Below the pieces are notes generated by a model, which was given only the letters and a program-made list of their open reading frames with translations, had not been told where the DNA came from and ran no database searches. Below, piece by piece: positions 2,931 to 37,170 of a DNA stretch of 64,000 bases. The position numbers and the translations under genes were made by a program. Positions within the stretch are counted from its first letter, which is position 1, and each line of letters opens with the position of its first letter. The stretch is taken from NCBI GenBank assembly GCA_973895155.1, contig OZ316892.1, positions 26,621,233 to 26,685,232 on the forward strand, read 5' to 3'. The stretch comes from Marsupella aquatica. Lineage: Eukaryota; Plantae; Marchantiophyta.

Positions 2931-2932
<2 letters not shown>

Positions 2933-2966
<34 letters not shown>
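2933..2966. repeat. (CT)n microsatellite just upstream of the KH gene ATG
   Basis: About 17 CT units, seen directly. Confidence 0.95.
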
Positions 2967-2971
<5 letters not shown>

Positions 2972-5900: not shown

Positions 5901-7048
5901 AAGCTACAGAAGAAAGCACGGCTCTCATTTAGACCCAACATGACATCAACAACATATCTAGCCTGATTACCTATTCCTTGAACATAAATAGAGATGAGTA
6001 GAAAAGAAGACCTTCCATTAGAAAAAATGATTCCATGTTTTTTCTTGTTCACATTTGTCCCCGTCCTTTAATTGTCTGCACCTTCACTTTTAGTTATGCC
6101 CTTATTTAGAGTCATTGTATAGAGACCCTCACTTTCAATCATGCTCTCAATTAGAGTCACGGTCTAGAGGCTTCCTCTAGGCCCGGTCCTAAGGAGTAGC
6201 TTTTAATTGCAATTTATTAGTTGCATAGCCTGTGTAGCATATGTACATGTAATAAACAAAAACTATAATAAGAGTTCCCGCGCGCCACGTTTTAGAGTGG
6301 TTATCTTTTTTAAAATTTAAAGGGCAGAAGGCCTGCACCTATTAGAGTGGTTGTCTTACAAACTTTAATGTTTTCTGTGCCAATAAAATCAGGAGGACAG
6401 AGTTGGAAAAGAAAATAAGGGACATTAAATCAACAGAAAAACATTCCAAGGAAATCAACAGAAAAACAAGCCACGACAAAAAGTGGAGAGGGGATGGATC
6501 CTTGGCCACTGCCTCCTTTGTATGCACTCCTACCCCATTGTACACCCAATCATGTGCTGTGCAATATAAAGTGTACTCGAGTGTCTCTTTGGTACTCCCA
6601 TGAAATGAGTACACTCTATGAAAATACTTGGCAAAATCGAATATCAATTTGAATGAAATAGCAATTGGTTGGGGGCCAAACTACTGGTCCAAAGTTGGGA
6701 GGGGGTCGGAGGGCTCAGGGATGCATATATGAGAATATATTTTACAGAACATCACCTTTTTGTTTAAAGACATCTTTTACACAATGATATCTTCTGTGCA
6801 GTGACATCTTTTACATAGCCACATCTTTTGTTCAATGATATATTTTCAGCCTTAGGTGATGTCTTTTTTGCAAATGATGTCTTGTACATAATGCCATCTT
6901 TTGAGAAACAAAATCTTGTGTGCAACACACAGGTATTGAGCTAGTAAGGCATACTGTTTGGGTAACCAGACTACAAGCTTAGGTTTGAACACATAGCAAC
7001 GCATGATGTTTGGATTCAGGGTTATTCCACAACTGTTTTTCACTTCCT

Positions 7049-7582
7049 GTCCCCCAAACTAGTTTAATTACTAACTTGCCCTCAAAAGTAATTTTATTCT
7101 CTGCTTGTCCCCCAATTTGTATGTGGGTTGGCTTCACCAGCCTAGACTAACCCAAGATGAAATGTACTTGGTGGGGCATGTAGAGGCTTTATATTTGTCC
7201 AAGCTAACAATGAGGCCTATGAGGGGACCAAAACACAAGAATTTTAGCCCATAGAGAGTAGTTGACACCCATCTTCTGATGAGTGTTGGATGGGGGGAAT
7301 GTACTTGGTCCAGGGTGAATGTACAGTTGGAGGGAGTTTGCATGAGAGAATTCCAAGCCTCCATGCATCCACAAATCAATCACATGTCATCTTGAGTTAG
7401 TACAATGGAGATAAGCCAACCCAAACATGAGATCTCACATAAGATGAGGGGCAACCTGATAAAATGTCATCTTGAGTTAGTACAATGAAGATAAGCCAAC
7501 CCATCTATGAGAGGGGCAGCAACCTGATAAAAAAATTAGTTTGGGGGCAGACGTTAGTAATTATTTTGACCAGTTTGGGGGA
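7049..7582. mobile_element. Degenerate MITE/Mutator-like element with ~60-70 bp imperfect TIRs
   Basis: tcccccaaactagtttaattactaac... (~7050) is the imperfect reverse complement of ...gttagtaattattttgaccagtttggggga (~7553-7582). No TSD resolved. Confidence 0.45.
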
Positions 7583-7993
7583 TACTATAGTAGAACAGGT
7601 AACAATCTAGATAATAATTATGACAAACACAATCATTAAAACTAATAGACAAGGGCCCATATAGGTATGGGTGTGTGGTAGCTCACTTGAGTTGAGTCAC
7701 AAGTCTAGAATTCAAATATTGTGACTGATTGTCCTGTTCCATTTTAGTGAGGCTTCACAGCTTCCCCCTTTAGAAAAACAAAACAAAAAAACAAAACTAA
7801 TAGACAAGGGTCCCTTGTTCGTAGGTGTTGTGGAGTCTAATACATAATTTTTTTTGGAATTTCAGGGTTTCAGTGTCAAAGTTGTAGTAGATAACTTTTG
7901 GGGAAGCAAGAGAAAAATTTCTGATGAGTATTTGAAAGAAAATATTCTAACTGAGTTCTTGATGTAAACACTGACTTAGAGCAATGGGTCACT

Positions 7994-8166
7994 CAGATGC
8001 CAACCTTAGCATTTTGGGCACTGTACTCCAAAAAGTACCTTAGTATTTTGGCAGTGTACTCCAAAAAGTTGAGCCCCACGAGCATGTATTGTGTTTGTGA
8101 GCCGGCCACTCTGCTTTGCCCGGCAGATGCCAACCTTAGCATTTTGGGCACTGTACTCCAAAAAAC
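7994..8166. repeat. Short direct duplication (cagatgccaaccttagcattttgggcactgtactccaaaaa x2 plus a partial copy)
   Basis: Identical ~41-nt blocks at ~7994 and ~8124, with a partial unit at ~8038. Confidence 0.8.
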
Positions 8167-9481: not shown

Positions 9482-12400
9482 CTAGTTCAGTAAAAGAGAA
9501 TATGCAGGCAAGTCTTCCACCCGGGTGACATCATCCAACTGTAACTCTCGTTCAATTTGTGTTCGTGTTGCACGCAAAACATCCTGCGCAAAGTCCATGA
9601 ACCAACAACAAATCAGAGAGACTCACCCATCTGTAACAACCTCTTCGCAAGAATTGTAGGGAAAAAATCTTTACAAACCGAGGTATAGCAGTCACTCTTT
9701 GAAAACGCGTGGCGTTCACCGCTGCTCTTTAAATATATAGCTGTGAAGAAGTACTGTAAGTACCAAATTGACCCATTGATATGGCTCTTCGCCTGGTCCA
9801 AAGCATTCTTAAACAAAGAATAAATCAGTTCTGTGTGACCCTATCGGTGTCTAATCGAGGATAAAACGAGACAGAGATGCAGGCCAAACATCTCACATTA
9901 AATTCCATGTAGGATGCCCGCATAGCCAGCCACTGTGCATCCATCATCTCAAACGCCACACAATAGAGCATGTCAAATGCCATTTCATCTTCTGCAAAAG
10001 CACAACAACTGATCAACTCAACAACGAACAAGAAAAAGCTCGGATCCTGACTGGCAATTACCCTGCTTTGTTTTATATACAGAGCAAAAAATAACTTCCA
10101 AAACTTTAATTGAAACCTTCGTGAAACTCAACAACAGTTTCATCCTAAACTGTTTTTCAAGGGCCACCCAATTTCCATCCTGATTAATAATCAAGCGAAA
10201 ATCAGTCACAAAAGTATCTAGTGAAGAAATATTGCTTTGGCCGAGCAATTCAAATTCCAGAGATGGACCAATTGATACTTCGGTTGAAATTGGATATTGT
10301 GCCAGATATGAGAACGTGCTTTCACGGACAACACTTACCAGCAAGAATTTTGATAAAAGTTACACCTGCTGTAGACGTGGGGGACGCTGAAATGAACATG
10401 CCAAAAAGTGCACAGCACCGTCCACATTAGCAAGATTAACAAGGTTTCTGCACCGCTACCTTACCGAACAAGAATGTTTCCAAATAACTGACGAGGTCTC
10501 CTAGATATCTTCCTCCAAGACCTGCCTACAGAAACAGACATAAATTTGTCCTGGATGCTGGCAAAAGAGTTCAAACAGCTCATGACCAGCCCAAATTTCC
10601 AGCGCAAGAAAGTAGGGGTTGGCGTGTTAGTGCGGTGGATAGAAAACTTAAGAAATTCCTGAACTGAGCTTCCAAGTTTACACTTTGTCCATCACAGAGT
10701 CAACTGTATACGGGCACTTTCAAGTGTCAACAGTTAAGACTAGGCACATACCTGCTCGAAGGTCCAGCATCTGAATAAGCATAAAAGTGATATTCAGGCC
10801 CGCCACCGCGAACGGGTACTCCCAAGTGGCTCTCTTGCCCTCTTGCTTGTGGAGCAACCTTGCGAATGAGCGCTGCATCCACGTCCCACAAGCAAACAAG
10901 CATATCATGGTATGTTTTAAGGGATACCATGACGAACACTTCATGAACGAAGAGAGTAGCAGCATAATAGTTTTTAAGACAACTCGCAGACATGCAAATG
11001 AGACCCTAGATTCACTTACTGGAAAATTCTGGGCTAAAAAGAGTAGATTCTCCAGTGAAACAAATCCTCCACCCCTGCATATGACCAAGTAATTATCAGA
11101 ACAAGAGATGATAATCAGTAGTTTGTCACTGGCTTTGATGAGAGCATGTAAGAGTCGTGTGGTGTGAAAGATGCTGGCAGATCCAAAGGTCAGGGCTAAG
11201 CGTAGGATTTCTCTGACCCATTCGCAGCCTTTTACTGTATCCATCTACAAACGACGGAACCCTACAATTTTCCTTATTGCAACTGGTATATCTTTCAACT
11301 AATAAAGATGATTAGAGAACCGATAGATCGCCTGTCTATTCCTCAAATAAAGGTCAGGAAAGAGGATCTGGGAGTACAAACCGGAAATCTGTTGAGGGAT
11401 CAACTCCTTGCCAGCCCATCTCTTTCCATTCCTCACAGACAAGGCCAGGAAGCTCACGATTTCTAAAGGCGGCTCGCCAAAGGGCTTTCAAGGCTTCCTG
11501 CATTACAGTAACACAATGTAAATCCAAAGAGACCATCAAAAGATAAAGGGCCAACAGGAACGTAAATCGATCTGCGACGATGCAGTGGGAGCTTATGAAA
11601 AATTGGGAGTATATGTTTGCAGAATTTAACAATATGAGCAATTGGGTGATGCTTGCCTGATGGTCAGGACGAGTCCCATCAAAGGGGACAGAGAGCCGTT
11701 CTTGAAGCCGTTGCAATCTCGCTTCCTGCCTCACGCAAGAAAGTGGGAGAAGTTAAAAACCACACCTCAAAAAGTGGTCCAGTCAACCGAGGATTAGCTG
11801 ACAAAGCACAACACACTCAGAGGAGCACAGCCACGTTCTTTAGGACGTTAGAAAATAGTGGGAAGCCAACAGCTGGTAAACGACAACGATTTGCCAAGGG
11901 AGAAGTAGGATGTAGTTTAGGGTGTCTCATGGGACAGTAAATGAAAGGTGAAGACTGGTACCATCTCTACAGTGATGAAAGCCTTCTGTGCTTGTAGATT
12001 CTTCAACCACTTTTTAGCTCTCTTGTGACATTTCTTCCTTGATCTTCCACGACCCTAAGAGGGTTTAGGGTTGTCCAGAATTATGCTTACAACCAAATTA
12101 GTTTACTGAACTAAATCATCATTTCTGCCTATCACCACTTTACTTGCACGGCGTAATTAGGTTTTGATTCCAAGCCATTCTCTCTTAATTTGTTGAAATC
12201 CAGGACCGATTTCCTTACACATCCTGCCATAAATAACGATGCTGCTGTCCAATGAACCTACTTATCTTTCTTTGTCCTCTTGGACTTTTTCTAGGTAATT
12301 GGGTTCGTTAAGACGAAAGTGTTTGTAGCACTAATGGCTTGCTTTTCAAGCAGGGATCACACTCGTTATTTAGCATAACAAAAGACACGATAAGTAATCG

Positions 12401-14365
12401 AGTGACCTACAAGTACGTCTCATAGTTTGCAATCTGACCACTACATGCTTAACATATTGGCAAGTACAGCATTTGCATCTTGGAAAACTTTCTAAAATGT
12501 GCCACACCACAATAGTATGTTTCAATCAAAAGTCTAGTAGATTATAAACCGCTTGATAAGAATTGGAAACATGACCAAGGAAACAACAACGGTTATGTGA
12601 TCTCACCTCAGCGGGGGTCAGCTGAGCAGCAATTCGATCACCAACAGTCCCTGGCCGCCGTAGGACTCGGAAAACGACGTTGCCTAGCAGGGAACCGGAC
12701 CCAACAACTACGTTTGCTGCATTCATCAATGAGCAATGTTATCGAGAAATTCTAAACTGGATTTAGTATAACGGGAAAGTCTACCGTGTCAAGAGCAGGA
12801 AGACAACCTTCTATAGCATTGATTAAGATTAACACCACAAGACAATTTACAGCACACGATTTAAGCGATGACATCTCAGACACAGACGGCCTACGCCTTA
12901 GGGATTACCTTTTCGACCCGTGCCTTTGGGCACACAAAAACTCATCTTTGCCTTTGAGCACAGTAGACATTTCTTATAAGATACGAAGTGTAGAACTTAC
13001 TAAACCATTGGGCCCACTGCGCAAGCAAGCGAGAGAAGATGTTTGACCACACTGCTTCTTCCTTGGTCCTTCTTAAATCATCCTCATCATCGCTTTCCTG
13101 CAGACAGGCGGCGCCCATTTAGTGCATTTCCAATCGCTAACATGTAACACAACACAAGATGCAAAGTCAGGTAGGAGAATTGCAACAGCGTGATTAACAT
13201 CCCAATTCTTACTGCAACCATTAGTTGCAAAGACAAGTACATTGTAATCTTCCAGGATCAGACTGTTACAAAGCTACGGGTTTAGTCAGTTCCAAAAGCA
13301 GCAACGTTCTTCATTGAAAATATCCCTGGAATCACGAACACAGGATCAAGACCTTACACTTCGCAAACAAGGACACCATCTGGCAGCGTAGCTGCATATT
13401 CCATGTGCCTGTCAAGCCTCTTACCACACATCCCGCCACGTATATGAATGCATGCTCGAGAAACTAATGCCTTAGTATGTAAGCACGCATAGTGCAGAGA
13501 TCAGAGTCCTCTGTAAGAATTCATTGTAGAGAACTGTATTTCTATGTAATAATGCATGCTCAGTCCTATCTGTCTAAAATTGCATACTCAAGACAAACGA
13601 CTTTCAGTCTAAGAAGCAGTCTCGAGGAGTCTTTCTGTCTTACAATGCGACAATGACTATCATGATTATCACCAAACGCATCCAATGAGCTCAGATATAG
13701 TCTGAACCCAGCGCGTGCAATGTAAAGTTTCACCATCCAGTACAGGATTTTGCAGAACTCTTGGAATTCACGGATCGCAGCGTGTGCCACGCGAATTCCG
13801 TACACTATGTATTGCAAGTAACGGACGTGGGTCTGATGACTGGTTGGACGCACAGGGTATCGGAACCAAAGCAGAGATCTTTGGTCCCGATGAAGGGATA
13901 ACTTGATAAAAGATTCATGAAATACGGCAGAGCCTTCGCTGCAGATCTAATAATGATCCGACATGAGAGGAGCAGAAAGACCGATGTCGACTAAGGCAAC
14001 AGCCTGCTGTTCGAGGACGCGGGCGCAGAGCAATTTATTCCGTCGAGACCTAACTTGCTGATCGGTTAACGGATTTCCACAGTACACAGTTTCAGAGCCC
14101 TCAAGCACAGTATCTTCATTCTACAATTGCTTCTCATGAAGTGTGAAAGAAGTAAGCGAGAAGCCCAAGAGGGAGAGGAGGAGGAGTAACAGAAGGAAAG
14201 GGACCAACTCACATAATAAGCTTGGCGGGACTTCTGTTCGTAGAAATCGCTTGTTCCCAAAAGTGGCTCGTTCAAGCCGTCAGACTCCTCAGCACCCACG
14301 CGGTCGTATCTTCCCCCTCCCACATCCTCATGATGGACACGCCTCCGCAATGCTCCCGAACTCAT
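9482..14365 (-). CDS. ELMO/CED-12 domain-containing protein (ELMOD family), 10 coding exons
   Basis: Exons 14365-14213, 13097-13001, 12716-12607, 11725-11657, 11497-11382, 11074-11020, 10872-10752, 10386-10339, 9991-9897 and 9583-9482 join in phase. ELMO motifs WKEMGWQGVDPSTDFRGGG, WEYPFAVAGLNIT, AFDMLYC...SYMEFN. Stop TAG at 9482-9484. Confidence 0.94.
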
Positions 14366-15521
14366 AATCTTCCAATCCACCTCTCTTCAATTAGGGTCCC
14401 TCCTACCGAAGAAGCTGCTGATGCTGTTCCTGTTCCTTCTGCTCCTGTCCTGCATGGATCTCTACTCCTCCCTCTTCTCCTAGTAAGTTTGCTTCATCCA
14501 GAGCCACGCGCAACCCACCACTATCACGATTCCGGCAATATCAAGATCGAAGGCAAAGGCAATCCTCGCCAAATCTCGTGCCCGGATAGATCGATAACCT
14601 ATCAGCCGACAAGTCCGCCTCTCGCCTTCATCGATTGGTCATACAGAGCAAGCTCAAGATGCGACCAAGTGCACAGATCTGTCCTCACACAGACAAACGC
14701 CCCTCCCTTTCCACGCCAAATCTTCAAACTCCGCTTTCGATCGATCCACCACAGATGATTCCCACACAATGAATCAACAAGCCGGCACGGAAGCTAACCA
14801 GAGTCCAAGACAGTGTCCGAAGTCCCAAGTGTCCAAAGTCCAGACACGGGAGAGGCGGCCGCAGCACCACTCCGCTACTCGTTAGTCGTAGGACACACCT
14901 CGCCTAAAATTAGGCCCCGCGAACCCGCGACGGTGTTGCCAGACACAGCTCCAGCAGACCACGACACAACAATAATGAAGCTCCACGTCAAGAAGTCTAA
15001 TAAAGGCCAATCGATCTCCAGAAACCCACAAACAATCCTGCAAGCTGCAAAAAGTCCTAGTCCGTCGCGCGTCTCCAGATCTACAGGTCAATCGATCTCC
15101 GAACTCCAAACCTACACGCAATCCAGCACGTCACAGGCAACACTGCGTACATCATTCCGCCATTCGAAACTCCTGCGTCATGCGATTCAAGGCTACTGAA
15201 CGTCGAGACGCCTCACTCGCTGGGTCAACACAAATCAGATCGAAGTATGAAACCAAACTACTCTCCTAGAACAGACGAACGAGAAGAGAAGAGAGGGAAC
15301 CGAAGAAACCTGAACAACGACTTGCAATGTAGAATTGATCATCGATCTCTCGACTCCATTTCTCGATCTATCGACTGACAGACAGAGAAATGATGCAGAG
15401 CTTTTGGTGCTTGCTCAGGAAATTGGTCATCTACACGAGAAGAGGAAAAAACACACAAGCGAAAAAGTTACCCCACTGTAGCGCCATGGAACCCGCATGA
15501 CGCGTGCTCATGGGAAGTAAA

Positions 15522-15775
15522 CTAACCTTGGTTAGAGTTGATGCGGTCAGGTTTGCACTACACTACAGAACAGTCAGTCTAACCTTTTGGTTAGAGTTGT
15601 CAGGTTTGCATTACAGAACAGTCAGTCTAACCTTTGGTTAGAGTGGTCAGGTTTGCACTACAGAACAGTCAGTCTAACCTTTGGTTAGAGTTGTCCGTTT
15701 TGCACTACAGAACAGTCAGTCTAACCTTGGTTAGAGTTGATGCGGTCAGGTTTGCACTACAGAACAGTCAGTCTA
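15522..15775. repeat. Minisatellite, 5 units of ~47-57 bp, each with a ctaacc-(t)n-ggttag palindrome
   Basis: Units ctaacc(t)nggttagagt...tttgcactacagaacagtcagt repeated head to tail upstream of the ELMO gene. Confidence 0.9.
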
Positions 15776-15961
15776 CGTGTCTAAGTACAGGTTCCCTGGA
15801 AGACACCCCAAAGCTGCACTTATCCATGGTATGCACCATATCACAAGTGCATGGGCATCAGTTATGCACTTATTCAAATGTGCATGTTGCATTTTCTAAA
15901 AAAGTGCATGTGAAATGGCAAACTCTCTGACTAACTTAAGCAAGTGTCTTGTCCAGTCATG

Positions 15962-16040: not shown

Positions 16041-17673
16041 GATTTGGCCTGGATAAGTGCATGAAACTACCATGTGTAATTGTCTGTTGCACTTATCAAC
16101 AAATGCTTCTAACATAGGTGTTAAAATAATTGATCAATTGGTGTCCACTTCACTTACAAACCGTGCATGTTTTGGGTACATTTACAAAGAAACATGTTGT
16201 AATATTAGGGGACTACGTGACCCACCTGCAGCTACCCACAGAATGCACTTATACACGGTAGACTGCATACAGAGGCCTCATTCACAGGAGAAAAATAGAA
16301 TCCATGAGAGTGACAAACTCAAGTGATGGTCCAGATCAGGGACTGGATGGTACTGGGAAGCTGGAGGACTAAATAAATTAAATCTTATTTGGAAGGAAAT
16401 TAGAGCCCTCGCTTGTAGGGCTAGAGCATAGTCACCCTTGCAGTACACCCGAGTCAGGTTAGGTCAGGTAAATAGCTTCCTGGCTTCTGCTGTCAGCTTG
16501 TTCCCACATTCCGCAGCCATGATTAAAGTGGCCGTCACAGCCTATAAACCCCCCCACCCCCCAGACCTCGGTTATCCTAACTTATGGGAGGGTTGTGTTG
16601 GGTCAGGACAGGGGGCAGGGCCTGGTCTGAGGGTCTCATGTGTGTGCTTGTTCTTGAGGCACCAAACAGCGAGTGATGGTTCATGCGATGGTAGACATTA
16701 TATGTTTGAAACACAAGTAAGTTGCTTGAAATTCACAGTCATGAGTTTGGGTTTCATGGGATAAGGGAAGACCTGACCCTAAAGCAATGGCTGCAATTTG
16801 GAGATGAGCAAACCAAATGCTCAAATGATGATGTTGCTGAGCTACCAGAGACTATCTGCATTATTTGTTTTGCTATTTTCACTCTTCAAATTTAGGGAAG
16901 AAACATGTTCCCAAGAATTTTGCCAGATCGAACACCTCTTCGAGATATCAGCAAAGTAGGAAAAATGTTGAGTTGACTAACTCATGCCTGGGACTCATGA
17001 TAAACATCTTGAACTAAAATTTTCATTACATTGACTAGGAGTAAGACATTAAACTTTAAGGGCTGTCAACCAAAGTAGGGTGAAAAAAATGGATTCAAAG
17101 TTGACACCCCAAATATTTGGTCCTCAGCCCCATAGCTCACTTTTCAGACTGCAAGGGTCCTTACTTTGTGGTGGGCAGTTTTTGGGCCCCAGGTGGCGAG
17201 GTCATGTTGCTTTTTGTCCTTTTTTCTTTGTCGATGCTAACTTGACTCCTTGAAAATTAGCAAGATTAGAGGAACCTACAAGTTTCTATTTATACACTAG
17301 GTCACTTCCGTTTACAACAATGTGCCTGCAATGTTCTACAGGTACATTAGTTGATAATTCAGATTGTATACTAGTTGCCTTTGGTGCTGGCCCTTCGGTT
17401 ACTTAGTTCTCCTGAGGATCTCCCACCTTTGGCTGGTTTCCCTCCTTTGGCCTGCTCTGTCGTGACATATAGTATCGTAGCCATGTAGTGTATCAAAAAC
17501 ATACAAGTCACCGGCAATGCATATGTGCAAGTTGCTAGCAACCAACATGCATAGAAAAAGTCCAATCACATTCACAAGTGCCAAGAAAAAACAACTGAGG
17601 TGGTATGTACGGAGTGGAGGTGTAAACCTCTGTATCCCCCCAGACCACAGCCAAAAGGAGGGCTGAAGAAAAG

Positions 17674-17830
17674 TCAGGTAGCACGTGGAGCACAGGAAGG
17701 GCAAAACCATAACCCTTCTGGCACCTGGGTAAGTTTAGGCCGAAGGCAGAAAAGATGGTACCCTCCATTACAATTATCACATAGCAGCATCTGGTCAACA
17801 TCATCAATTCGCAAACACACTTTGCAAGGG
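17674..17830 (-). pseudogene. PHD finger at the C-terminus of the retrotransposon Pol
   Basis: CKVC...LLCDNCNGGYHLFCLRPKLTQVPEGLWFCPSC matches the C4-H-C3 PHD pattern with the conserved W. Confidence 0.92.
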
Positions 17831-18055
17831 TAGTCCACAGGTGGAATCCAGGTAGAAGTCACAATGGTGGGATCCAGGTTGGGCAGATGACAAGGGGCGC
17901 AATTCTTGGCATTGTCAGCAATTGTGCGCCCATCTGCCCCTTGCAACTCTAGCACTCCAGACGGTCGAATAGCCTTAACCCTGAGAATGGTACGACTGGT
18001 AGAGGTGTCCAGGGTGTCGTTAGCTTGCCACTGCTAGTACACAAAATCTCCCACA

Positions 18056-19132
18056 TCAAACTTCCTGACCTTGGGCTGAAAAGTGCCCCCTCATGTGTGT
18101 GCATAACGCAGTGTGTCCAGGGCTGTGTTGTGCAATGGCCAAATTCTCCATGGCCATGGACATAACCCTCCTAAATAGGGCAGCCCTCTCAGAGATCACA
18201 TCAGACCAAGTCACAGCTGAATCCAAGTCCACCACCTGAAGCATGTGAGCAGCAATAGCAGAAGGTGGAACTGGGTGACGACCAAACAACAAGAAGTAGG
18301 GAGAAAAGTTAGATAGTGATGCATGTCTGGACATCCTATACCCCATGGCAATGTAGGGTAAGGCCAAGTCCCAATCCTCCTTGTTTTTGGTGAGGCAAAT
18401 CTTCCAGAGACCCTTCTTGCATGTCTGAACCATGCGCTCTGCCAAACCATCTGCCTATGGGTGATCTCGTGATGTCCGGCGATGATCAATGAGGGCCTGA
18501 TCAAGCAGCTCCTGGAACTCTCCTCTAAACTTTGAGCCCTGGTCAGTGAGACATTCTGCACAAGCTCCAAAGCGGCTGAGAACTTGTTGCAAGAATGCCT
18601 GGCTGGTGCTACGGGAGGTCTTATCCGGCAATGCCACAAGTTCTATCCACTTGGAGAAATGCTCTATCATGATCATGATGTAGAGATTACCCCGAGATGT
18701 GAGGGGTAATTCTCCAGCCAAATCACATGACCAACGATAAAACATGCCCTGAATAGGGAGTGGATGAGGTGTGGGTTGCCGAGACGTGAAAGAAGTCCTT
18801 ACCCTATCACACTGCTCACACTGGGCAATAACATCTTGAACTTGGCCATGCATGCCTCTCCAATGATAATGAGGGACCAAGAGGCTGTAAGTCCTCTTAA
18901 CGCCAAAATGACCAAGCTCAGAATGTACCTTACGAATAAGGCCAACCCTCTCATGAATGGGTGGAACCACCAGTTCCCTGTCTGGCAAGCAGCGCACGAG
19001 ATGATCTCCCTTCCACAAGTAGCGCTTGGACCTTTGCTGAATTCGGTCTCTCTGGGCAGCAGTAACATGTGTGGGGTACTCCCCATGCTGCAAAAATCTC
19101 AGAGTGTCGTTGTCCTCCCATATGTCCACCAC
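18056..19132 (-). pseudogene. Retroviral-type integrase (HHCC zinc finger + DDE core)
   Basis: HSELGHFG...CEQC; WSCDLAG; CLTDQG; AERMVQTCKKGL; in-frame stop near 18455. Confidence 0.93.
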
Positions 19133-19249
19133 AGATTGGTCAACAACATAGCATGCAGCAAAGCAAGATAGGTCGATGCATGAAATGTAGGTAGGATGGA
19201 AACCTGGTCAAAATCTTGCCGTGCATCTGAGGAATCATCAGAGGTAATC

Positions 19250-19620
19250 AAAGGGTTGCGGGACATAGTGTCAGCATTCTGATGTGTCAAACCAGGCCTA
19301 TGAATTACCTCAAAGTCATACTCCTGGAGGATGAGTGCCCAACAAGCAAGCTTGCCAGTAAGCTTGTCGTTAGTCATCAACCACTTCAAGGGCTGGTGGT
19401 CAGTGTAGAGAGTAAACCTGGTCCCATAGAGGTAGGGCCTGTAATGTATGACAGCCCACACAACAGCAAGGCATTCACCTTCATAAGAAGAATAATGACT
19501 CTCTGCCTGATTGTTGCTCTTGGATGCATAGGCAATGACGTACTCTTTACCTTCCTCATCATGCTGGCCCAGAATGGCACCAATCCCAAGGGCACTCCAA
19601 TCTGTGTGTAGCACAAAGAC
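19250..19620 (-). pseudogene. Ty3/Gypsy RNase H
   Basis: LHTDWSALGIGAILGQ...YEGECLAVVWAV...YTDHQPLKWL...NADTMSR. Confidence 0.93.
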
Positions 19621-19859
19621 CGTGCTGAAATTCTCAGCACCGGGTATTCTGAGAGCTTCTCCTTCAAAGTGGCAAATGCTGCCTCAGCATCTGTACTCCA
19701 TGTCCAAGTCACATTCTTTTTCAACAAAGCATACAATGGGTGTGCAATGGTACTGAAATCTTTGATGTAGATCCGATAGTAATTGCACAACCCAATAAAA
19801 CTCCTCAAAGTGTGAACATCAGTAGGAGTGGGCATTTCCAAGATGGATACCACCTTGGC

Positions 19860-20602
19860 CTAGTGAGCCATGGTTCCATTTGGAAGAATGCGATGCCCAA
19901 GATATACTACTGATCTGACAGCAAATTCACACTTCTTGGGGTGTATCTTTAGGTTCACCTTCTTAAGCCTCATGAATAGCTCCTCAAGGTCAAGTAGATG
20001 CTGGTCAAATCCTTTGCTGTGGACCAACACATCATCAATGTAGCATTCAGAAACTTAGCACCTTGAAGAACCTGGTCCATGACTCTTTGAAAGAATATGG
20101 GCGCATTCTTCAAGCCAAATGGCATCACCAACCACTCCCATAGTTGGTTACTACCATGGAAAGCTGTTTTCTTGCGATCCTTTGCAAGCAGCAAAATCTG
20201 GTTGAAGCCTTGCCTTAGATCCACAAGAGTGAAGATGTCTGAGTCTCCAATGCTGTCAAATAGCTCCTATGGCCGTGGCATGGGGTACCTGTCCTGGGGT
20301 GTGACCAAGTTCAGTGGCCTGTAGTCCCCACACATGCGCTTCTCTGTCCACAATCCACTCGAATCCTTCTTTGCTGGCATCATTGTAGCTGCTGCAAAAT
20401 CTGATGTAGATGGCTGAATAAGACCAGCTTCATAGAGCTCTTGGCACCTCTCATCCACCAGCTGCCACTCATGCTTACTCAAATGGTGTCTTCGCCTGAA
20501 GATAGGTGTTTCATCAGCCAACTCAATGGAGAACTGCATAGTCTTGCACTTACCCAAGTCCTTCATAGAGAAAGCAAACACGTTCTCATGCTTGAGGAGC
20601 AA
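19860..20602 (-). pseudogene. Ty3/Gypsy reverse transcriptase
   Basis: RMCGDYRPLNLVT, DLRQGFNQI, KTAF, MPFGLKNAP and (after a frameshift) CYIDDVLVH at ~20020-20045. Confidence 0.94.
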
Positions 20603-21029
20603 ATTCTGCAGCTGGTACGTCCTTCTATCTTTTACTCAGGTGGTTGCCCATGATGAATGTGTAGTTGGCAACACTAGGAACAGGACCTGATGTACTCGTG
20701 CTAAGTGAAGAGCCAGAAGTGCCAGCCTCTCCACTATCCAAGCTGCTAGCATGCTGCTGATAAGGTGATGAGGCCTCTCCAAGGCCTATTGTACCTGCTG
20801 ATCTGAGTTGGTCCACACCATATATGAAACTCAGAAATATTGTCAGCCACGTTACAAGGGACCTCCTCCCCCCCAACACTTGGACTGAAGCGGTGAGTGT
20901 TGAATAGAGGTAAGTGCACCTGGTCTGGATGCCATGTAGCAACACCATGGAGTGGGAGAGTTGGAACTCCAGATGCTGGATGAATGTACATCTGAAAAAG
21001 GATGCAAGTGACCAGAAGCCAAGTGAGAG

Positions 21030-21955
21030 CATTAAGATCCATTACCCTACCAAGTAAAGCATTCCTGGCCAGTCTGGTGATCTTGGTGTGACCTGTAGTA
21101 CCGGATTGGAAGCCCATAGCCCGTTCTCTCTCCTCAGGACTAGGTTCATCCCATGTACCGGTAGAATGTCGATAAACCAGGCCAGGACCATCACCCTGAA
21201 AGGCATGTGCACCTGGAAAGGATACAAATATAGGCCAAGCAGCACGGGGCTGTCCAATGGTATTGGCTGGATACCAAGGTGCTGGCTCTTGCCAGGTAAC
21301 TGGTTGGCAAGAACTGTCAGGATCCAAAATCTGGTCCACTATGAGGTTAGTATCCCTGGATGTGTGGTGAAGAGCTAACTCCAGCAAGGAAGGTGGTGCA
21401 AGGTTAGTCCAAAAGTTACGAAGACGATGATTGTGCATAAGAACCACAGTGCACTGCATCAATGAGAAGGGGTGGTCCCAAGTAGTGCTGGACCACACTG
21501 AAATCCTCTTTGACCTGTGGACGCTGGTCAAACTGAGATGGAGTATTCTCAACATTTGATATAACCAACAGCAGGATAAAGGGATTGAGCCTAGGTGAGA
21601 ATCTGACCCAATGCGGCCAGAACGAGAATCATGCAGTCCTGCACCATGACCAGCAGCTGAAAACCCTTGGCATTCCCAACCAGCTATGATCAAATCAAGG
21701 GAGCCAAGAAGGGTTAAGTGCCGGTGCTGGACAACTGGATATCTGGAGGAAAGAAAGAAAATGCAGACTTCCATGCACTGTGTGGAAACTGCTGGGGAAA
21801 TCGCTCTGAAAATTCCAGTAGACGGGATTCAGCCACTTGCCTTGCACTTGGATCAATGTCCACGTAGATGTACTGCTTCACCACCATGCCGGACTGTAGG
21901 AGAGCTTCCAGGCCTGTAGAAATGCCACCAAAAAGCTCAAGCAATGTAAGGCCAT
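21030..21955 (-). pseudogene. C5 cytosine DNA methyltransferase domain (DNMT3/Dcm-like), frameshifted
   Basis: Motifs in canonical order: I LLELFGGISTG; II YVDID; IV DLIIAGWECQGFSAAG; VI VENT (alternate frame, ~21543-21554); VIII DAVHCGSYA/HRLRNFWTNL; IX PEERERAMGF; X RNALLGRVMD. Confidence 0.88.
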
Positions 21956-22937
21956 CCGGAGGAGGAGTCCATGTAACTGGTGCGCTCCAGATTGGGGCTA
22001 TTGGTTGTCCATTGTGCTGCCCAAGGTCCTCAAATTTGCGCAATGCAGCCACCAAAGGTCCATGGGCTGCTTGGAGCCGTTGTACCACCTCTGGTTGACG
22101 ATCCACGTTGATGATAGTCAAGAAAGATGGAGCAGCATGACCAGAGTCCAGTGTAGCTCTAGTCACACAATGCTGCAGCAATACTGTCATCTCTACCACT
22201 GGAAATTGATACTGGGATAGCCAAACCAATGGAAGCATGTAATGGAGAAGAAGAAGGTCCAGTATGTACATGAGATTGGACCTCCAAAACCGATGTCACA
22301 GGGGCTGATGAAGAATGAAGTGAGCCCTCTAGCGCTCTGATGACAGCTCTAGCATCCAGTTGTAAATCATGGCAACTAAAAAGTGGAGTTGTAAGAATCC
22401 TTTGTGCCATACCGGGGGAGACAAGCTCAAGCAGCTCAGGAGAAACAACTCCCTGTAAATGTCAGCAGCACCTGGTGGTGGAATGGATGTAGCTGCAGCT
22501 CCCTCCCCTCTCACCAACAAGGTGCGCTCTTCAGCAAGTGTGAGTGGCTGAAAAGATTGGGGCATGATAGCCCGAGCTCCCCTGGCTCTAGTCATAGGAC
22601 CGGCAGCAAGACCATCAGCCTGTACAATGCAGCGTGTGGGAGCAATACGGGAGGCAGCACTGGTCTGCTGGTAAGCAAAATAGGAAGGACAGAATGAATC
22701 TGAAAATTCTACTGTAAGGCCAGGCTGTGTAGCAGAGGACAACACACACTCACCCATATGAGCATCAAATGGCAAGCCATAGAAAGAGCGGGGTAGAGAT
22801 GCTGAACTGTCAGTGGTGCCTGGGCCAGGGATGGGTTGCACGTGACCAGCCGGTTGAGAAGGACCAGCAGAGGCAGGTGACTTGCCTTTGATGTTGGCAA
22901 GTTGGGCACGCAGGGACTCAACCTCATGAGTCAGAGA

Positions 22938-24310
22938 CTAGAGTTGAGTTGCCTGGGCATTGTGAGCCTCCTTCTGAGCTGGTTGCTTCTGTTGCTGCTT
23001 GGGCAATTTGTTGGCATTGGGTGCTTTGCCACTGGAAGGAGGAGCAACTGATGCAGTAGGAGCCCTCCTAGCTGGTGGGGGAGTGAAAATAGGAGCAGGA
23101 TGAGGGGCCTGCTGTTGTTGCTGCTTCCTCTTTGGGAATTTGGCAAAACAAACTGCCTCCAAGTGACCCACTTTTCCGCAAAAATCACAAGACAGGTCCT
23201 CACCAACAATATCACATTCATTAGCCTTGTGATTGGGGTTACCACAATAATTGCAAGATGGCAGCATGAAAGCAGCATGGGCTGGCTTGGTCTTGGAACC
23301 ATACTGTGGCACACGGGAAGGGGTGGCCAGTGTAGGGGCAGCAGCTTGGTACCTGGATTGCGGTGGATGCGCAATACTGGCCTCATAATGTGCATGGGCC
23401 AACTCAAGTTTTTCAGCAGTGTCATAGACATTGAGCAGGGTGTAGCTATCTCCAAACTCTGAGAATACTTGTTGCAACACTTGCGAATGGAGAGCTGGTG
23501 TGCCCTCCAATGCGCGAAGATAGCGATGAGCAGCTTCCAGGTCAGTGATACTCTGGGTGTCCTCCTTCAACTTGAGAAGCCGACGATACATCATCTTTAA
23601 GGTTTCATCGCGCTGCCTCACAAAGGTGGCCAACTGCATGATTTTGTCAACACTCTTGATTGGGAATTCCAATTCAAGAACCTGGAAAAACTTAGCCACT
23701 AGATCAGCAAAGGCAGGAGAATCAATGGTGGGAGAAATGCCTGATGTAGCCTGTGCCAAGACAGTGGGAGTAATTGGTGCAGTGGTAGGAACTGGAGTAG
23801 GAGGGGAAGTGGCAGGAGCAACAGCATGGGCTGCAATGGCATTCTGTAAGGCCAATTGTGAGGCTGCCACAATTGCACTGGCATAGGTAGGGTTAGGCAA
23901 TTGTGTGACAGCAAGCAGCCATTGAGAATGCTGCTCATACAATCCAAAGCCTCATGGTGCAATACCTGGCTAGCTGTTGCAAAAGCATTTGTGAAATTGC
24001 TGCCATACTTCAATTCCAATTCGTAAACGACAGTGTAGAAAGTGGATTTGAACTCACGTAAAGAGACAATGCCTGGCCGCCCGCTGAAGCGCTCAATGCG
24101 GCCAGATGAGTGGCTGGCATCCATGCTGTATGTCGGTGAAGCAGGAACAACCACTAATGCAGAAGGGGTAAATGGCAATGAAGTGATAGCAGGCTTCGGA
24201 GTAGTGGTGAAGCGACCGCCAAATGTAGCAGGAGGATTGCGTGGTGTGGGTGCTGCTGCTGTCTGTGGACATCGTCGAAATTTCCGAGACTCCAATGAAA
24301 TTGGCACCAA
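22938..24310 (-). pseudogene. Gag with two CCHC zinc knuckles (frameshift near 23945)
   Basis: Capsid-like IERFSG...LREFKSTF and RQRDETLKMMYRRLLKL; CNYCGNPNHKANEC and CDFCGKVGHLEAVC. Confidence 0.85.
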
Positions 24311-25184
24311 TGGTCATGGATCACTCCGTAAATGGTACCTGGGTGTCTTTGGCGATGTGCTGCTACAACTTGGCTCCTCTGTTGACATGCTGCATGCTCA
24401 CTCGGGGTGCCTAAATAAAAAATGTCCCCCTTCTAGGTGGTACGAGGTGCCAATGGGAAAGAAACTGACAAGAAAAATGAGTGGTAGCCCCAAGGCTAGG
24501 AATAAAACCCACAGTGCGAGGCAGAAATGTGTAGACCGGCCCTGCCGAAAATATACTCACAAAAAAATGAATGGAAAGAAAACAAGAGGAAACGGTGAAA
24601 AGGGTTCTCCGTTATGCGTATACACAGGGGTCTGTGTATACACATAAAGGGCACCGGTCGGTGCCCAATGTGGATACATCATCGGGATCCCTGGAAGAAA
24701 AAGAGGCCGGAAAGAAGCAGGTGTATGCACACTCGGGAGGCACGGTACCCTATGCTGCAAGGCACGGCGAGGCGAGGCTCGGTGACAACTTAATGGCTAG
24801 GGCCTGCATAGGGCTTCGTGCCCCACTATGAGCTCCCGAAAAGATGGGGCTACAAGCTCCCCCTATCCCCCTTTTGAGCCTTGTGCCCTGGCAGCGAGTG
24901 ACTCCCTAGAGAGGAGTCGAGTGTACTCCCGTGTGAGGGAGTTCGAATTGAACTTCCCTCCCCTCCTTTAATGCAGCTTGGGCCTTGTGCCCTCTCCTGG
25001 CACTCTCGCTCCCCCTCCTGGCCTCCTTTTATTGCAGCATAGGGCCTCGTGCCCACTCCTTACGCTCCTGCTCCCCTCCTCCTGGCTTTAATGCTGCTGA
25101 AGGGCTTCATGCCCTGCAAGAGAACTCCCGAAAGGAGTCTACGTTTACTCCCCCCCTCTTCAATGCTGATAGTGGGCTCCGTGC

Positions 25185-25512
25185 CTCGGGGGGGTCACTT
25201 CCACGGAAGTGACACATCACGTGCGACGAAGTATAGGCCCATTTAAATGGGTGTGACGGAAGACTCCCAAAGTTTGGTGGAAGAACACATAGGGCATGTT
25301 TTATTGATTGGTCGACTTTAAAGAACACATAGGCCTATTTAATTGCAAAAAATACTTTCTATAAAGTTTTTAGGGGTTTTTTAATAAAAAATGACAAAAT
25401 TTTAAGAAAGAAAGGGCTTTGCAAAAAAATATTTTTCACTTTAAAGTTAGGGGGGTCAAACCCTAAAACGTCGCACGCGATGTATGACCCTCCATATAGT
25501 GACCCCCCCGAG
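25185..25512. mobile_element. Non-autonomous DNA transposon (MITE), 15-bp TIR CTCGGGGGGGTCACT, 8-bp TSD ctccgtgc
   Basis: Perfect TIRs. TSD at 25177-25184 and 25513-25520. AT-rich core. Inserted in the retrotransposon 5' region. Confidence 0.92.
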
Positions 25513-26693
25513 CTCCGTGCCCTGCAGAAGGACTCCCGAAGGGGGTCGACGTTAACTCCCCCTCCCTCTTTAAATCTTCATAGGGCCTCGTGCCCTCTCC
25601 TTGCGCTTGTGCTCCTGGTCGGCTCCCCCTCCTCGCGCTTAATTAAATGCTGGCCGAGATGCTGGCAACGGGCGCGGGAGGAAGAAAAACGCCGAAGGGA
25701 GGGCGCGCGGCCCTATGCGCGACCCAGGGGCAATGATGAGCCCTGCATGTGTATACACAGGCAGGACTGGGAGACACCTCGCGACGGTAGCTGCGAGGGG
25801 AGGCGAAATGAAACAACGGCCGGTGAGAGAAAAGAAAGAACGGGACCCCAAAGGGTCGTGAAAACGTAAGGCGAAGGGAAGGTGGTCGCGCTGTGACCGG
25901 AAAACACCGAATATGGCCCGAAAAAGGTTGTGGCAGTCAGCAACTGGCAGCCATAGTCGAAAGCAGCAAAGGGTCCCCAGATGCAACCGGAAGCAAAAAT
26001 CGGGCTCCAACGGGAGCGTTATGTGTATACTTATGTTAAGTATACACATAACACCATATTGAACCCATAATTTCAACTCGTCCCTCCGATGTCCGTCAAA
26101 GAAATGGCAATGGCTTCACCAGAAATTGTCGAAATCGTCACGAGCAATCTTCTTCCCCTCACCGCTATCTCAGCAGTTCTTCTTGAATAAAAGGCGTAAG
26201 AGAAACAATTGTACTGAAATCGAATCGAAAACCGGCAGGATGCCAAGATCGGCCGGGAGCATCTAACGAATCACTGTGTGAATCCCTTGTACGGAATCGA
26301 CGAGCACTGTCTGAGCTCTGTCAACAGCGATTCAAGAAGAACTAAAAACCAACAAAGAAAGACATGCCCTAAGTAAACAAAGTCCTGTCGTCACACTAAC
26401 AAGCATGTTTGCTTCAAGAACGCCTGAAATTTGCTATAAGAACATGTCGCTAACTCAAGTAGTACACTAGCCCTAACTACATACCTAGCGGGCATGCGAG
26501 GGACATGCCGATGTGCATAAGAGGCACTGTCCCTCGGCATGACAGCTCTGCTAAGTGTGGGCTTCTCTGGTTATATGCTGCTTTCTAAGGTTATTATTTT
26601 GTTTGTGGGAAGTACAGCTAAGGGTGGCTTTCTATTTGCCCCTGTTTTCACCCAGGACCCACCTAGGCCTGTACTTGCAAAAGAGGGCAGTGC

Positions 26694-26974
26694 CAGTGCA
26701 AGTTTGAAGGAGTTCACTTTTTTGCCAGAGTGGCAAACTTAAAGTGTGTGAAGGCTAGGAGAAGATGCTCAAAATATTCTCTATTCAATTATTTTCCTGA
26801 CCGTCAGATCTCCCTAGATTTAAGGCTGACCGTTAGATTCTGGCTATGGGGCGTGGGATTAGGTGGAACACTGGCTAATGAGACAGCAAAGAAGTAGCGA
26901 ATTTTGCCAAAAGTGGCAAAAGATTTCTGGGGAGGTGGAATCTAGTGAATTTTAGCCACTAAAAAAAAACACTG
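26694..26974. mobile_element. hAT-like non-autonomous element, CAGTG...CACTG termini, 8-bp TSD ggcagtgc
   Basis: TSD at 26686-26693 and 26975-26982. Related fragments (gggaggtggaatctag, aagatgctca) recur at ~52240-52340. Confidence 0.75.
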
Positions 26975-29679: not shown

Positions 29680-32130
29680 CATCGAAACGGTTTAGCGCTC
29701 CGACTGGCCATATCCTGAAAGGATTGTTCCTCATGTATAGGCAAATGATTTTTAGTTCAGATCCAATGTACGATTCAAACTTACTAACGTCCCCTAGCCT
29801 CCAATAGCGTACGCCTCCTGAACCGATCCCCAAACTGATCAAGCCATAGCGTACTCGTTGACGTTAACGAAGCATCGATCCAATACTTTCAATGACTCAA
29901 CAGCAGTTTATACAAATGAACGAGAACCTACCGATTTGGAAGCTCCGCCACTATCGTATCGAGAGTGAGTAAATGCACAGCACGGATAGATACATGCAGC
30001 CAGCTAATTATGTCATTGTAAAGGAGGATGCTGTGTAGCTAGCTGCACTGTAGAGGAAAATTACTCATCGATCCTATTCGAGAGAAGAGAACTGATCCAA
30101 TTCAAGCAAAAATTGGCTTGCATACTGTCCCGATGATGAGTAAAAGTCCCGATGATGAGTAAAATAATGCACCCTGTAGTAGAAGTACGTACAACTATAT
30201 ATGTCATTAAGGCGCCAAAGGAGGATGGGGTGCTGCTGCAATACATAAAAAAGTTGCAGATCGATACAGAAAACGTCAAGCCGGAAACAACTAGTGCAGA
30301 TGGGACTTTCCTGAAGACGCAGCGTATAATGACAATCATGCATTTGCAGCACACCACAGGCTGGTCAGGATCCACCTGAAGCGACATATCGAACTCGAAT
30401 CCAGGTAAATGCCTTGCCTTATTCCTTGCTCATGAGACTCCAGCTAGCGAAGAAACCTCAAGGAGGGAAGCTGCTGCAAAACCTTCTTTCGACCACCACA
30501 AGTCCCCGAACGAGTCCCAGTAGCAGCTGCTCAGATACTCGATCAACTGATCGCAGCTGGAGGAATTGATCCGCTATCGCAGCAACAACAGACCGTCCAT
30601 CTTCATTTCCTGGCAGTCGAGTTGGGAGTCCATGATGTCACATCGCCAAACTGATCCAGGAGTTCCTGAATAATCGTTGTGTAGATGCGATATTAGCAAT
30701 GATCATCGTGATGCAAGCACTGTACAAAGCACAAGGGGTGGTGAGCATCGTACCGCCAAGCGACAGGAAGCAACGGCTACTTTTGCAGCTGTCTTTGCAT
30801 AAGCAGAAATTGAGTGACTCTGGGTTGAAAAGTTCATCAAGAATGTTAAGGATCGATCAGGCGACCAGAACCACAAGACGAGACTTATAACAGGATTCTT
30901 AGGAGGCCAGCCAAGCCAAGCCCACGGTGGACGGTTTGGAGCAAGGTTTCGAGGAGCATCTACAAAGTACGTTAGTCAGTAGCATCCATGCTATTTCGAT
31001 GAACACCTAGAGGGTACTGGCTAGCAAAGCGGGGCTTACCGATGCCGATCGATGTCATGGAGGAGACGACTAGAGGATTCAATCCATCCAACAATGTCAT
31101 AATCCCTCGGTCAAGTGAGTAGAATTGTTTTTCAGACTTATTACATGAGACATCATAATTGTCGCTTTGCATCATCATGTATATGAGGTCCTGCATATAT
31201 TCTTTGAACCTAATATATAAACCGTCCAATACGTGTGTTGACCACTAAAGCATAGAAGTTTGCCCCGTTACCATCGAAGCCACTGTAGCTAGAGAATGCC
31301 GGAATGGAGTTCTGTTCATGGCGTGCGCGGAGGTTTACAATGTACTACCCTTCAACGTGCGAAAAGGGACTTGGGAAGACATCACACTGACACCACCAGT
31401 CGCTGACAAATCAATGCCGAGATGCTTGGTAGTTTCCAATGCAAGTCATAGACTCTAATCATCATCAAAGCGACATGTGCAAGAGCACGTTTGTGCTGAA
31501 GATCATTGATCCTCATTTAAACACAGGGTTTGGAGGTTGCAAGTTTCCTTGTGGTATAACTCGTGTTTCAGACTTTCAGGTAACGAATCTGTCGTTCCTA
31601 CAGTGAACAGGATGGTAACCTGCATTGCAAACTACCAAGCATCGATCTCCTCCTTCATGACAAATGTCATTCTGCTTTTCTCCCAAGTCCATTCTCGCAC
31701 GTCACAGGGGAGTACATCGTCAACCTCAGCGCACGCCATGAACAGAGTTCCATTCCTGCATGTTTCTCTAGCTACGGTAGCTTCGATGGGAACGAGGCGA
31801 ACTTCCATGCTTTAGTGACGGATTGCAACCTCGAGTATATATATTGTAAACTCGATTGCAATGTTCTAAAGCCATATTCTCAGTTTTGATTAGTGCTCAG
31901 AAACTCAGACAATGAATCCCCCGTCCCAAGGTGTCCCAAGGTGTCCCACTACTTAATTAATATTAGTCTCCAGTTCTATTTCTGCGAAGTCATCTACAGT
32001 AGTCTTTTAAGTCTCTCACTTGCTTGTTCAACCTGGCTTGCACTATGGAGTCAAAACAAGCAACCGTCCTCGCTGTACATTTGTTTTTGTGAATGGACTT
32101 CTCCAAAGGGAATGTGCTTGGCCTAAAGAG
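29680..32130 (+). repeat. Diverged copy of the duplicated unit (upstream region, decayed repeat-protein gene, 3' region, long hairpin)
   Basis: Collinear with 61930-62500, 58000-60690 and 51030-51790. Examples: aaact/cctac(t/c)aacgtcccc and cgcagctgga(c/g)gaattgatccg. Confidence 0.8.
31243..31817 (+). ncRNA. Long imperfect foldback (candidate hpRNA/MIRNA precursor, or foldback element)
   Basis: 31243-31392 pairs with 31665-31817, and 31418-31445 pairs with 31618-31645. TATATAAA at 31214-31221. Paralogous foldbacks at ~46740-47235 and ~51030-51550. Strand is inferred from the TATA box only. Confidence 0.5.
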
Positions 32131-36280: not shown

Positions 36281-37170
36281 CTCGGCTAATGTCAATTTAT
36301 TCTAGCCTGTAGTGGACCATGAATTGTCATGAATATCCACCGTCCTGCAATAAATATATCATGGGGCCTAAAAGACAAGGAAAGCATACCTACTATTGAT
36401 CGACTGGAGCCAGATCAGGTTATTAAGCAGTGGCAGAAACTGCAAGAAGCTAAGATTTATCGGAGAAAAGCTCATTTAACTGTGGTAGAGGTGAAGCGAA
36501 AAAAGGCTCAAAAACTTCAGGAGGAATAGGAGTGTTTTGCTTCGTAAGATTCAACCTCTTCTGAAGAAAGTGATTATCCCTAGTGTTGGTGTTTGTGACA
36601 GTCCTATGAACCTAGATCTTGCAATCACACCAGAGGCACAGATTGGCTTCAAGGGATTATCAAGCCCTGATAAGCAGCGGAAATCTCACTTCCGTGAGTG
36701 GCAATCAACTTTATCTGAGCAATTGCTAGACATTGCTTATCCAGAGGTTGAAGTGAAGAGGACTGATTCTCATCTGGAAGGGTCTAATAAGGTTGTTCAC
36801 CAAGTCATCAAGCAGTGGGAGAAGTCTCAAACTGTTGCTTCAGAGATCATTTGGTTCGACAAAACGTAAAGGAGGGTTAAATTTTGGTATTGAATTCGGA
36901 TATTTCGAATAAGGCGTGCAAGGGCTTGTTCAAACAGCCGGAGTGCAAAGAGTCAATCAATCCTACATCTGCTTTAATAGTACCGGTTGTGAAGCTTGGA
37001 GAAGCTTTGCATACCTAACAGGTTTACAACCTGTAATAGTGACTGAGGGAGTTTCACAACTTCCCGGAATCACTGCTCTAAAAGGATTTGCTGGTTGTGA
37101 GGGTTGTGATGGAGGACGGTCCGAAATAATCTTGTAAGCTGGTTTTCAGGCTATTGGTTGGTGAGATAAG

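Follow-up and report, generated by a model that had tools for sequence, protein, structure and literature searches.

How does a retrotransposon that lacks a pair of long terminal repeats (LTRs) copy itself and return to the genome, and what might it gain from a cytosine methyltransferase of its own? Both questions are raised by a Ty3/Gypsy element of the liverwort Marsupella aquatica (assembly GCA_973895155.1, contig OZ316892.1, positions 26,621,233 to 26,685,232), which lies in a stretch of 64,000 nt referred to below as the window. The element occupies 17458-26544 on the minus strand, has TG...CA ends and is bordered by an exact 4-bp target-site duplication (17454..17457 and 26545..26548, same letters). 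It is a decayed, protease-deleted copy of a multicopy liverwort family. An earlier note made from the letters alone had reported a methyltransferase and a PHD finger within it but missed its most unusual trait, namely split end repeats with their own priming signals, which would place the attachment sites inside the replicated LTR. We consider it probable (roughly 0.6) that a single explanation holds for these features: the window copy would be a dead member of a split-repeat family whose enzyme methylates cDNA, whose PHD finger reads histone H3 unmethylated at lysine 4 (H3K4me0) and whose integrase opens an internal CA-nn-TG junction.

No LTR pair is present within the window, because the end repeats of the family are split and the window copy has the form A-coding-B. 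Repeat A (26187..26544, minus strand, 358 bp) opens with the TG attachment end and would comprise the promoter, R and U5 (the repeated and the unique 5’ part of an LTR). Repeat B (17458..17635, minus strand, 178 bp) closes in the CA attachment end and would be the 5’ part of U3, the unique 3’ part. The two were delimited by contigs of other copies from runs X1 and X2, which join 26545 to 17458 and 17635 to 26187. Related loci have the layout A-coding-B-A-B (A1, B1, A2 and B2 in the following), the B of the window taking the place of B1. Neither the window copy nor its split-repeat relatives have two complete identical LTRs around the coding region. Both ends are visible in 12 distinct loci (L050 and L056 counted as one), eight of which show A-B-A-B and four A-B as in the window. 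Five of them carry an exact 4-bp duplication, four have one mismatch in it and in three it is worse; the duplications seen do not fit the NCGN preference described for Phygy (PMC6317226). In the window the duplication sets the 5’ end at 26544 and not at 26395, where the earlier note had placed it; no target duplication is found at 26395, which falls within repeat A.

The inner B1|A2 junction reads CA, two nucleotides, TG in 15 of 16 distinct copies, the remaining one being unread. The spacer is GC in five copies, AC in five, GT in four and AT in one. A GC spacer makes the junction palindromic, and the other three could be derived from it by cytosine deamination. Moreover, in eight loci A1 and A2 are 84-92% and B1 and B2 88-96% identical. 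Such alike divergence would follow from renewal of both pairs at every insertion.

Signals for priming are found at the borders of these repeats. The end of A1 is the reverse complement of a 14-15 nt stretch inside A. For the window copy, 26175..26188 (minus strand, end of A) is a perfect 14-nt complement of 26330..26343 (minus strand). The former is thus predicted to be a self-priming primer-binding site and the latter the RNA 5’ end serving as primer; the equivalent stretch is located ~32 nt below a TATAAA in 18 of 20 locus rows. A helix of 14 nt compares with a maximum of 8 in 300 random internal 22-mers. Two compensatory changes distinguish the helix of the window from that of locus L011, and over the loci it is paired in 88.5% of cells versus 38-62% on sliding. 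We therefore predict minus-strand priming by a self-primer of the Tf1 type, for which there is precedent (PMC4600332). A G-run directly before B (17636..17641, minus strand) is the likely plus-strand primer site (polypurine tract, PPT). It precedes B1, and never B2, in 15 of 16 distinct listed loci.

From these signals a replication cycle can be proposed. The RNA would start in A1 and end in A2. Minus-strand synthesis would be primed at the end of A1 by the first 11-12 nt of this RNA, and plus-strand synthesis at the start of B1 by the G-run, so that ordinary reverse transcription from these primers would yield linear DNA with LTRs of the form B-nn-A. The outer ends of such an LTR have no conserved TG/CA; the integrated ends would instead be those of the inner junction, TG and CA. 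Two integrase nicks, placed after CA on each strand of the near-palindromic junction, would leave normal processed ends with 2-nt overhangs, and joining of the outer ends, either as a circle or after insertion, would carry B to the right end. Copies of the A-coding-B form such as that of the window could stem from products with one LTR or from recombination between B1 and B2 and would be unable to supply a 3’ R. Internal opening of an LTR, as suggested by the repeat layout, would be unusual for a DDE integrase, and we know of no earlier case of obligate junction integration by a DDE retroelement. The activity as such has precedent, since retroviral integrases are able to cut palindromic LTR junctions, as seen for the CA/TG junction of foamy virus and HIV-1 2-LTR circles (PMC1180852, PMC1905944). 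In contrast to those circles, where the junction is made from the cDNA ends, it is encoded inside the LTR of the liverwort family and would be the sole attachment site.

Several observations weigh against this cycle. A circle opened at either junction should also give a permuted A-B-A-coding-B form, which is absent from all 23 distinct 5’ ends (0/23). Hence the junction model requires an additional asymmetry. The simplest would be timing, with strand displacement finishing the left LTR long before the right one. A bolder proposal holds that the CpG retained in the B end is methylated strand-specifically, so that methylation of the attachment site would choose which of the two junctions opens; we regard this as a long shot. 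In addition, the window copy has no clear TATA, and covariation of the helix within the loci is not above shuffles (191/500), in a test where the window row was misaligned.

The missing permuted form would be accounted for directly by replication of the DIRS/Ngaro type. In the model proposed for those elements, the RNA would extend into B2, the ends would be templated by the internal B1-A2 junction and the integrase would act on free TG/CA ends, while the hairpin and the G-run would have other roles. The repeat layout is indeed that of PAT, Ngaro and VIPER (PMC4157794, PMC6681497). Moreover the A2|B2 junction occurs in two types, full in 10 cases and short by 2 nt in five, which are somewhat clustered by subfamily: they need three changes on the tree, a number as low being reached in 47/500 shuffles, which is only weakly informative. 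On the other hand both types occur inside one clade with 100% support, no primer site was found where B ends, the complement coincides precisely with the end of A1, and the G-run lies immediately before B1 but not before B2. We consider replication of this type unlikely, and other roles for hairpin and G-run within it likewise, and retain the opening of the internal junction as the preferred reading.

Whether the methyltransferase belongs to the family or only to this copy can be answered from its relatives. Members of the family consist of Gag, protease, DNMT3-like methyltransferase, reverse transcriptase (RT), RNase H, integrase and PHD finger in that order. The contigs of other copies lack the three frameshifts that interrupt the methyltransferase of the window (20977..22010, minus strand). 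Summed contig depth in run X1, which is no copy number, is 85,000-147,000 in methyltransferase bins and 95,000-164,000 in RT/integrase bins compared to 81-107 in the adjacent left flank, i.e. about thousandfold for the methyltransferase. A metagenome scan gave 448 relative-encoding stretches among 596 pattern matches, and all figures for loci refer to the best 80 of these 448. Since methyltransferase motifs served to select the loci, copies lacking the domain had no chance of appearing, and the conservation of motif IV is partly built in, which has to be held against our reading of the enzyme. The 80 loci resemble named Sphagnum proteins. The protease lies upstream of the methyltransferase in 74 of them; the PHD finger is reached in 31, most others stopping at a contig edge. 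Taking together the RT-like depth, the upstream protease and a ratio of nonsynonymous to synonymous substitutions (dN/dS) equal to that of RT, the methyltransferase is a trait of the family, as the earlier note had supposed.

Searching the whole library gave 641 representatives at E ≤0.001, 150 of them among the matches listed. Named relatives come from Calypogeia fissa, Sphagnum magellanicum, S. compactum, Marchantia polymorpha and Closterium; in Calypogeia CAM6101866.1, Gag, protease, methyltransferase and the start of RT lie within one predicted protein. Two layouts occur. In the first the methyltransferase is located between protease and RT (protease-MT-RT), which holds for all named streptophytes, while in the second it lies between RNase H and integrase (RH-MT-INT), where Scenedesmus is the sole named member among the matches listed. 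In both trees a branch has the protease-MT-RT layout as one of its sides, with 19 of 62 rows and support 100 for the methyltransferase and with 7 of 38 rows and support 94 for RT. The methyltransferase tree is a quick one without host DNMT3 rows in which 38 residues of the window row are in the wrong frame, and it consequently shows grouping by layout but not origin.

Capture of the domain as a single event, or algal contamination of the contig, was named in the earlier note among what would overturn its view; the captured piece could be an exon of a host DNMT3. The failure of the window frame alone to match PF00145 could be taken in favour. However, the domain has no introns and is placed alike in relatives from liverworts, mosses and Closterium, and the trees place its layout on one side of a branch. 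The flanks are liverwort-like and are matched without differences by contigs of run X1 at single-copy depth, so that contamination is not indicated. Relatives, trees and flanks thus contradict both ideas, which we regard as hardly credible.

Some relatives deserve separate mention. The larger sister group (P0004, P0069, P0123/P0307 and others), whose named member is Scenedesmus sp. PABB004, carries the DNMT3-like domain between RNase H and integrase and also has a PHD finger. The domain seems to have shifted position, or to have been captured twice, in green algae. The Marchantia polymorpha protein P0220 (MARPO_0008s0049 / MARPO_0009s0240) is an annotated gene that represents a Gag-protease-methyltransferase fragment; it belongs to a second, Pro-Cys subgroup apart from the window clade. 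Locus L016 contains at 778-6010 a second, more diverged copy with the same domain order adjoining the matched one (82% DNA identity). Viral contigs were considered as a source of further relatives and dismissed: the nine loci found there encode ordinary Pro-Cys methyltransferases of the phage type with partial matches (39-130 of 335 query residues), and no viral contig matched a protein of the chlorophyte layout.

Judged from profile and model, the methyltransferase folds like DNMT3, and its motifs I-X follow one another without permutation. A profile of 50 sequences compared with solved structures matched DNMT3A at E 4e-25, DRM2 at 9e-11 and M.HhaI at 3e-8. The unbroken domain of L011 was modelled with a pLDDT (predicted local distance difference test) of 95, and in a Foldseek search with this model 31 of 31 among the matches listed were DNMT3A, B or C. 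It replaces an earlier fold from eight sequences with a partial query, which was poor (pLDDT 59). In the window itself motifs I, II, IV, VIII, IX and X can be read as previously noted, but motif VI (ENT) lies in another frame between two of the frameshifts. The window frame alone therefore reaches only 14.1 bits with PF00145 (cut-off 22), the frameshifts scattering its motifs, whereas the unbroken relatives L011 and Calypogeia P0037 score 40.4 and 27.1 bits.

The domain is kept under purifying selection throughout the family. In the 80 loci, 62 distinct and decayed copies give a median dN/dS of 0.35 for both methyltransferase and RT and of 0.36 for the integrase; between the window and the loci the methyltransferase gives 0.10 with saturated dS. 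A dN/dS below 0.2 is given for KnitGypsy-Dnmt3 of Klebsormidium nitens (PMC5890265). The catalytic Cys, the arginines of motif VIII and the S-adenosylmethionine (SAM) binding motif I are kept, as is also seen in columns conserved at 90%, and motif VI has its Glu in 55/62 and its Asn in 62/62 of these copies.

Selection may also maintain a protein that has ceased to be an enzyme. A DNMT3-derived module could be kept to bind DNA or RNA, shielding the cDNA or titrating host methylation factors, without catalysis. Motif IV is GWECQ in the window in place of the usual PCQ; this exchange of Pro-Cys by Glu-Cys is found in 14 of 17 distinct proteins of the protease-MT-RT layout and in 40 of 56 of the RH-MT-INT layout, and argues against an active enzyme. 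The Klebsormidium domain furthermore gave no methylation in yeast, a result deemed inconclusive by its authors, while the related SymbioDIRS-Dnmt3 domains are active on CG according to the same source (PMC5890265). Nor does base composition help: the coding part of the window element, at 0.26, is more CpG-depleted than two elements nearby (0.52 and 0.73), yet in seven loci the flanks are equally or more depleted. There is hence no element-specific CpG loss in related loci, and depletion, which fails to discriminate element from flanks, was dropped as a mark of self-methylation. Against the loss of catalysis stand the retained residues listed above and the occurrence of Pro-Cys and Glu-Cys forms in both layouts. 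We consider a non-catalytic module rather improbable. The domain is likely to be packaged together with RT and to methylate CpG of the new cDNA, and we favour such a co-packaged de novo enzyme over a pseudo-enzyme by roughly two to one.

The PHD finger at the C-terminus of the integrase (17692..17826, minus strand), reported before, is borne out by a match to PF00628 at E 1.9e-12. Its best solved relatives are WSTF, CHD4, BAZ2B, KDM5 PHD1 and ATXR5, which we take to be readers of unmethylated H3K4. The Trp two residues before His that marks readers of H3K4me3 is missing. The finger is thus predicted to read unmethylated H3K4 and to steer insertion away from active promoters. A chromodomain was found neither in the window frames nor in the scanned relatives, the PHD finger taking its place.

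Such a reader would favour inactive chromatin, which could equally suit an active methyltransferase that serves the host or limits the element itself: insertions would arrive already silenced and do less harm. The possibility is raised in the discussion of PMC5890265. Since the family is abundant in the runs, we hold this purpose to be still more doubtful than the lack of catalysis, and continue to prefer an enzyme acting on cDNA in the course of the element’s own replication.

The closest description in the literature is KnitGypsy-Dnmt3, with an intronless Dnmt3-related domain in a Gypsy Pol under purifying selection and, following the legend of Fig. 4c, a DIRS-like repeat layout (PMC5890265). 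Because of the shared domain, Pol and repeats, the window family is most likely of the same kind, extended to land plants; the likeness rests on the published description. The available text of that paper takes the capture to be confined to the K. nitens lineage and contains no PHD finger, no analysis of priming or integration and no land-plant element, whereas the liverwort element resides in an embryophyte. A recent preprint likewise deems ‘streptophytes (Gypsy-DNMT3)’ a separate capture, its available part mentioning no bryophyte element (bioRxiv 10.64898/2026.05.21.726589). In the literature searched, with Repbase, theses and most subscription papers outside its scope, neither the family in embryophytes nor a split-repeat Gypsy integration is described. 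The claim of novelty made earlier holds insofar as no account from embryophytes was found, but was overstated in view of what KnitGypsy-Dnmt3 shares.

Other systems share single traits. A primer-binding site that complements the predicted RNA 5’ end, as proposed for the window family, is described for Tf1/Tj1 and plant Tcn1 (PMC4600332, PMC6317226). In those elements the LTRs are paired in the ordinary way, the attachment sites are terminal, and Tcn1 has a chromodomain, in contrast to the split repeats, PHD finger and DNMT3-like domain found here. PAT, Ngaro and VIPER have A1-B1-A2-B2 split direct repeats and PAT carries a methyltransferase, yet they are described with a tyrosine recombinase and no target duplication, and the methyltransferase is Dam-like (PMC4157794, PMC6681497). 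The liverwort family differs by a DDE integrase, TG/CA ends, 4-bp duplications and a C5-type methyltransferase; Pfam scans of the window frames and the scanned relatives gave no tyrosine recombinase family. PHD fingers are known from green-lineage Gypsy elements, one of which is REM1 of Chlamydomonas. Another, Gypsy-7a_cRei, prefers intergenic sites but has paired LTRs, and DNMT is not among the domains listed for it (PMC9940879). EpiLTRs of Cymbomonas and Euglena also combine a cytosine methyltransferase with a chromatin reader, although with DNMT4-related, Dam and chromodomain modules (bioRxiv 10.64898/2026.05.21.726589).

With somewhat better than even odds, the family belongs to an old green-plant Ty3 lineage that reaches from zygnematophyte algae to liverworts and mosses and combines a self-primed permuted LTR, obligate integration through an internal junction, its own DNMT3-type writer and a PHD reader. 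DNMT3-bearing retrotransposons would thereby turn from an algal oddity into an abundant share of bryophyte genomes. Surveys of the REXdb type demand two full LTRs (PMC6317226) and would hence be expected to miss the split-repeat family. De novo methylation in bryophytes is carried out by the host DNMT3 (PMC10952607), and methyltransferase inventories of liverworts and mosses may include copies of the element as host genes; Marchantia MARPO_0008s0049 looks like one. If the junction model is true, the family is a natural system in which a DDE integrase routinely cuts an internal attachment site, long argued about as a retroviral side reaction, and lets one ask directly how a retroelement profits from methylating its own cDNA.

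The remaining domains of the window copy are collinear on the minus strand, with Gag, methyltransferase, RT, RNase H, integrase and PHD finger in the order previously stated, and every one of them is interrupted by stops or frameshifts. Pfam scans of 12 frames matched RVT_1, rve and PF00628 as anticipated. Gag (22250..24124) contains two zinc knuckles (~23139-23258; zf-CCHC, PF00098, E 0.0018) and a linker, has a stop and frameshifts and is 55-70% identical to P0037 and P0003 over its main stretches. RT (19860..20524; PF00078, RVT_1, E 1.7e-12) has a YIDD motif, one stop and one frameshift and is 81-85% identical to P0001. It is followed by RNase H (19318..19629; PF17917, RT_RNaseH, E 2e-37) and by the integrase (18086..19126), which comprises an HHCC zinc finger and a D,D(35)E core with a frameshift and in-frame stops (PF17921, Integrase_H2C2, and PF00665, rve; E 5e-14 and 1.4e-13; aligned to P0006 and P0007).

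The aspartic protease sits between Gag and methyltransferase in relatives and is deleted in the window copy at 22110..22125 (minus strand). The gap is seen against P0037 and P0018, ~250 residues of the former (~626-878) being unmatched, and other copies depart from the window sequence at 22110-22114, with loose ends at 22110 and 22114. A protease-like stretch near 22150 turned out to be merely the deletion joint. The long 5’ leader (24125..26186, minus strand) has short internal repeats, a probable nested insert and no Pfam match in any of its eight frames. Within it, the ~330-bp stretch 25185-25512 with ~44-bp inverted ends and a depth profile of its own also matches 37527-37684 outside the element (74%) and is probably a nested miniature transposon.

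The identity of a flanking gene shows the host to be a liverwort, and the land-plant setting proposed before is thereby borne out. This gene encodes a far-upstream-element-binding KH protein (541-2905, minus strand) with 84-94% identity per exon to Calypogeia. Its first exon, compared to proteins, shares 83% identity with Calypogeia fissa, 72% with Marchantia and 45-47% with Sphagnum (seven matches among 166 candidates), so that the host is probably nearer to Calypogeia. An ELMO/CED-12 gene follows at ~9800-14400 (minus strand). CpG is almost gone at 5001-8000 (observed/expected, o/e, 0.05-0.3). Units of ~47 bp in tandem, multicopy in runs X1 and X2, lie between the ELMO gene and the element (15522-15780). 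A multicopy stretch (26545-26950) adjoins the 5’ end of the element, which points to insertion into or next to another repeat.

Further features are found at higher positions of the window. An open frame of 485 codons at 55309-56766 (minus strand) has no Pfam match, and its motifs resemble the zinc knuckle and the restriction-like endonuclease at the C-terminus of non-LTR elements of the CRE/R2 type. Repeats of one family, dispersed as well as in tandem, occupy 30500-31800, 45800-51600 and 57900-62700; units of 123 bp and ~207 bp lie inside an open frame of 411 codons (58400-59635) without a Pfam match. Finally, a decayed element resembling a long interspersed nuclear element (LINE) is located at 36495-41684 on the plus strand, with a zf-RVT match at 40877-41446.

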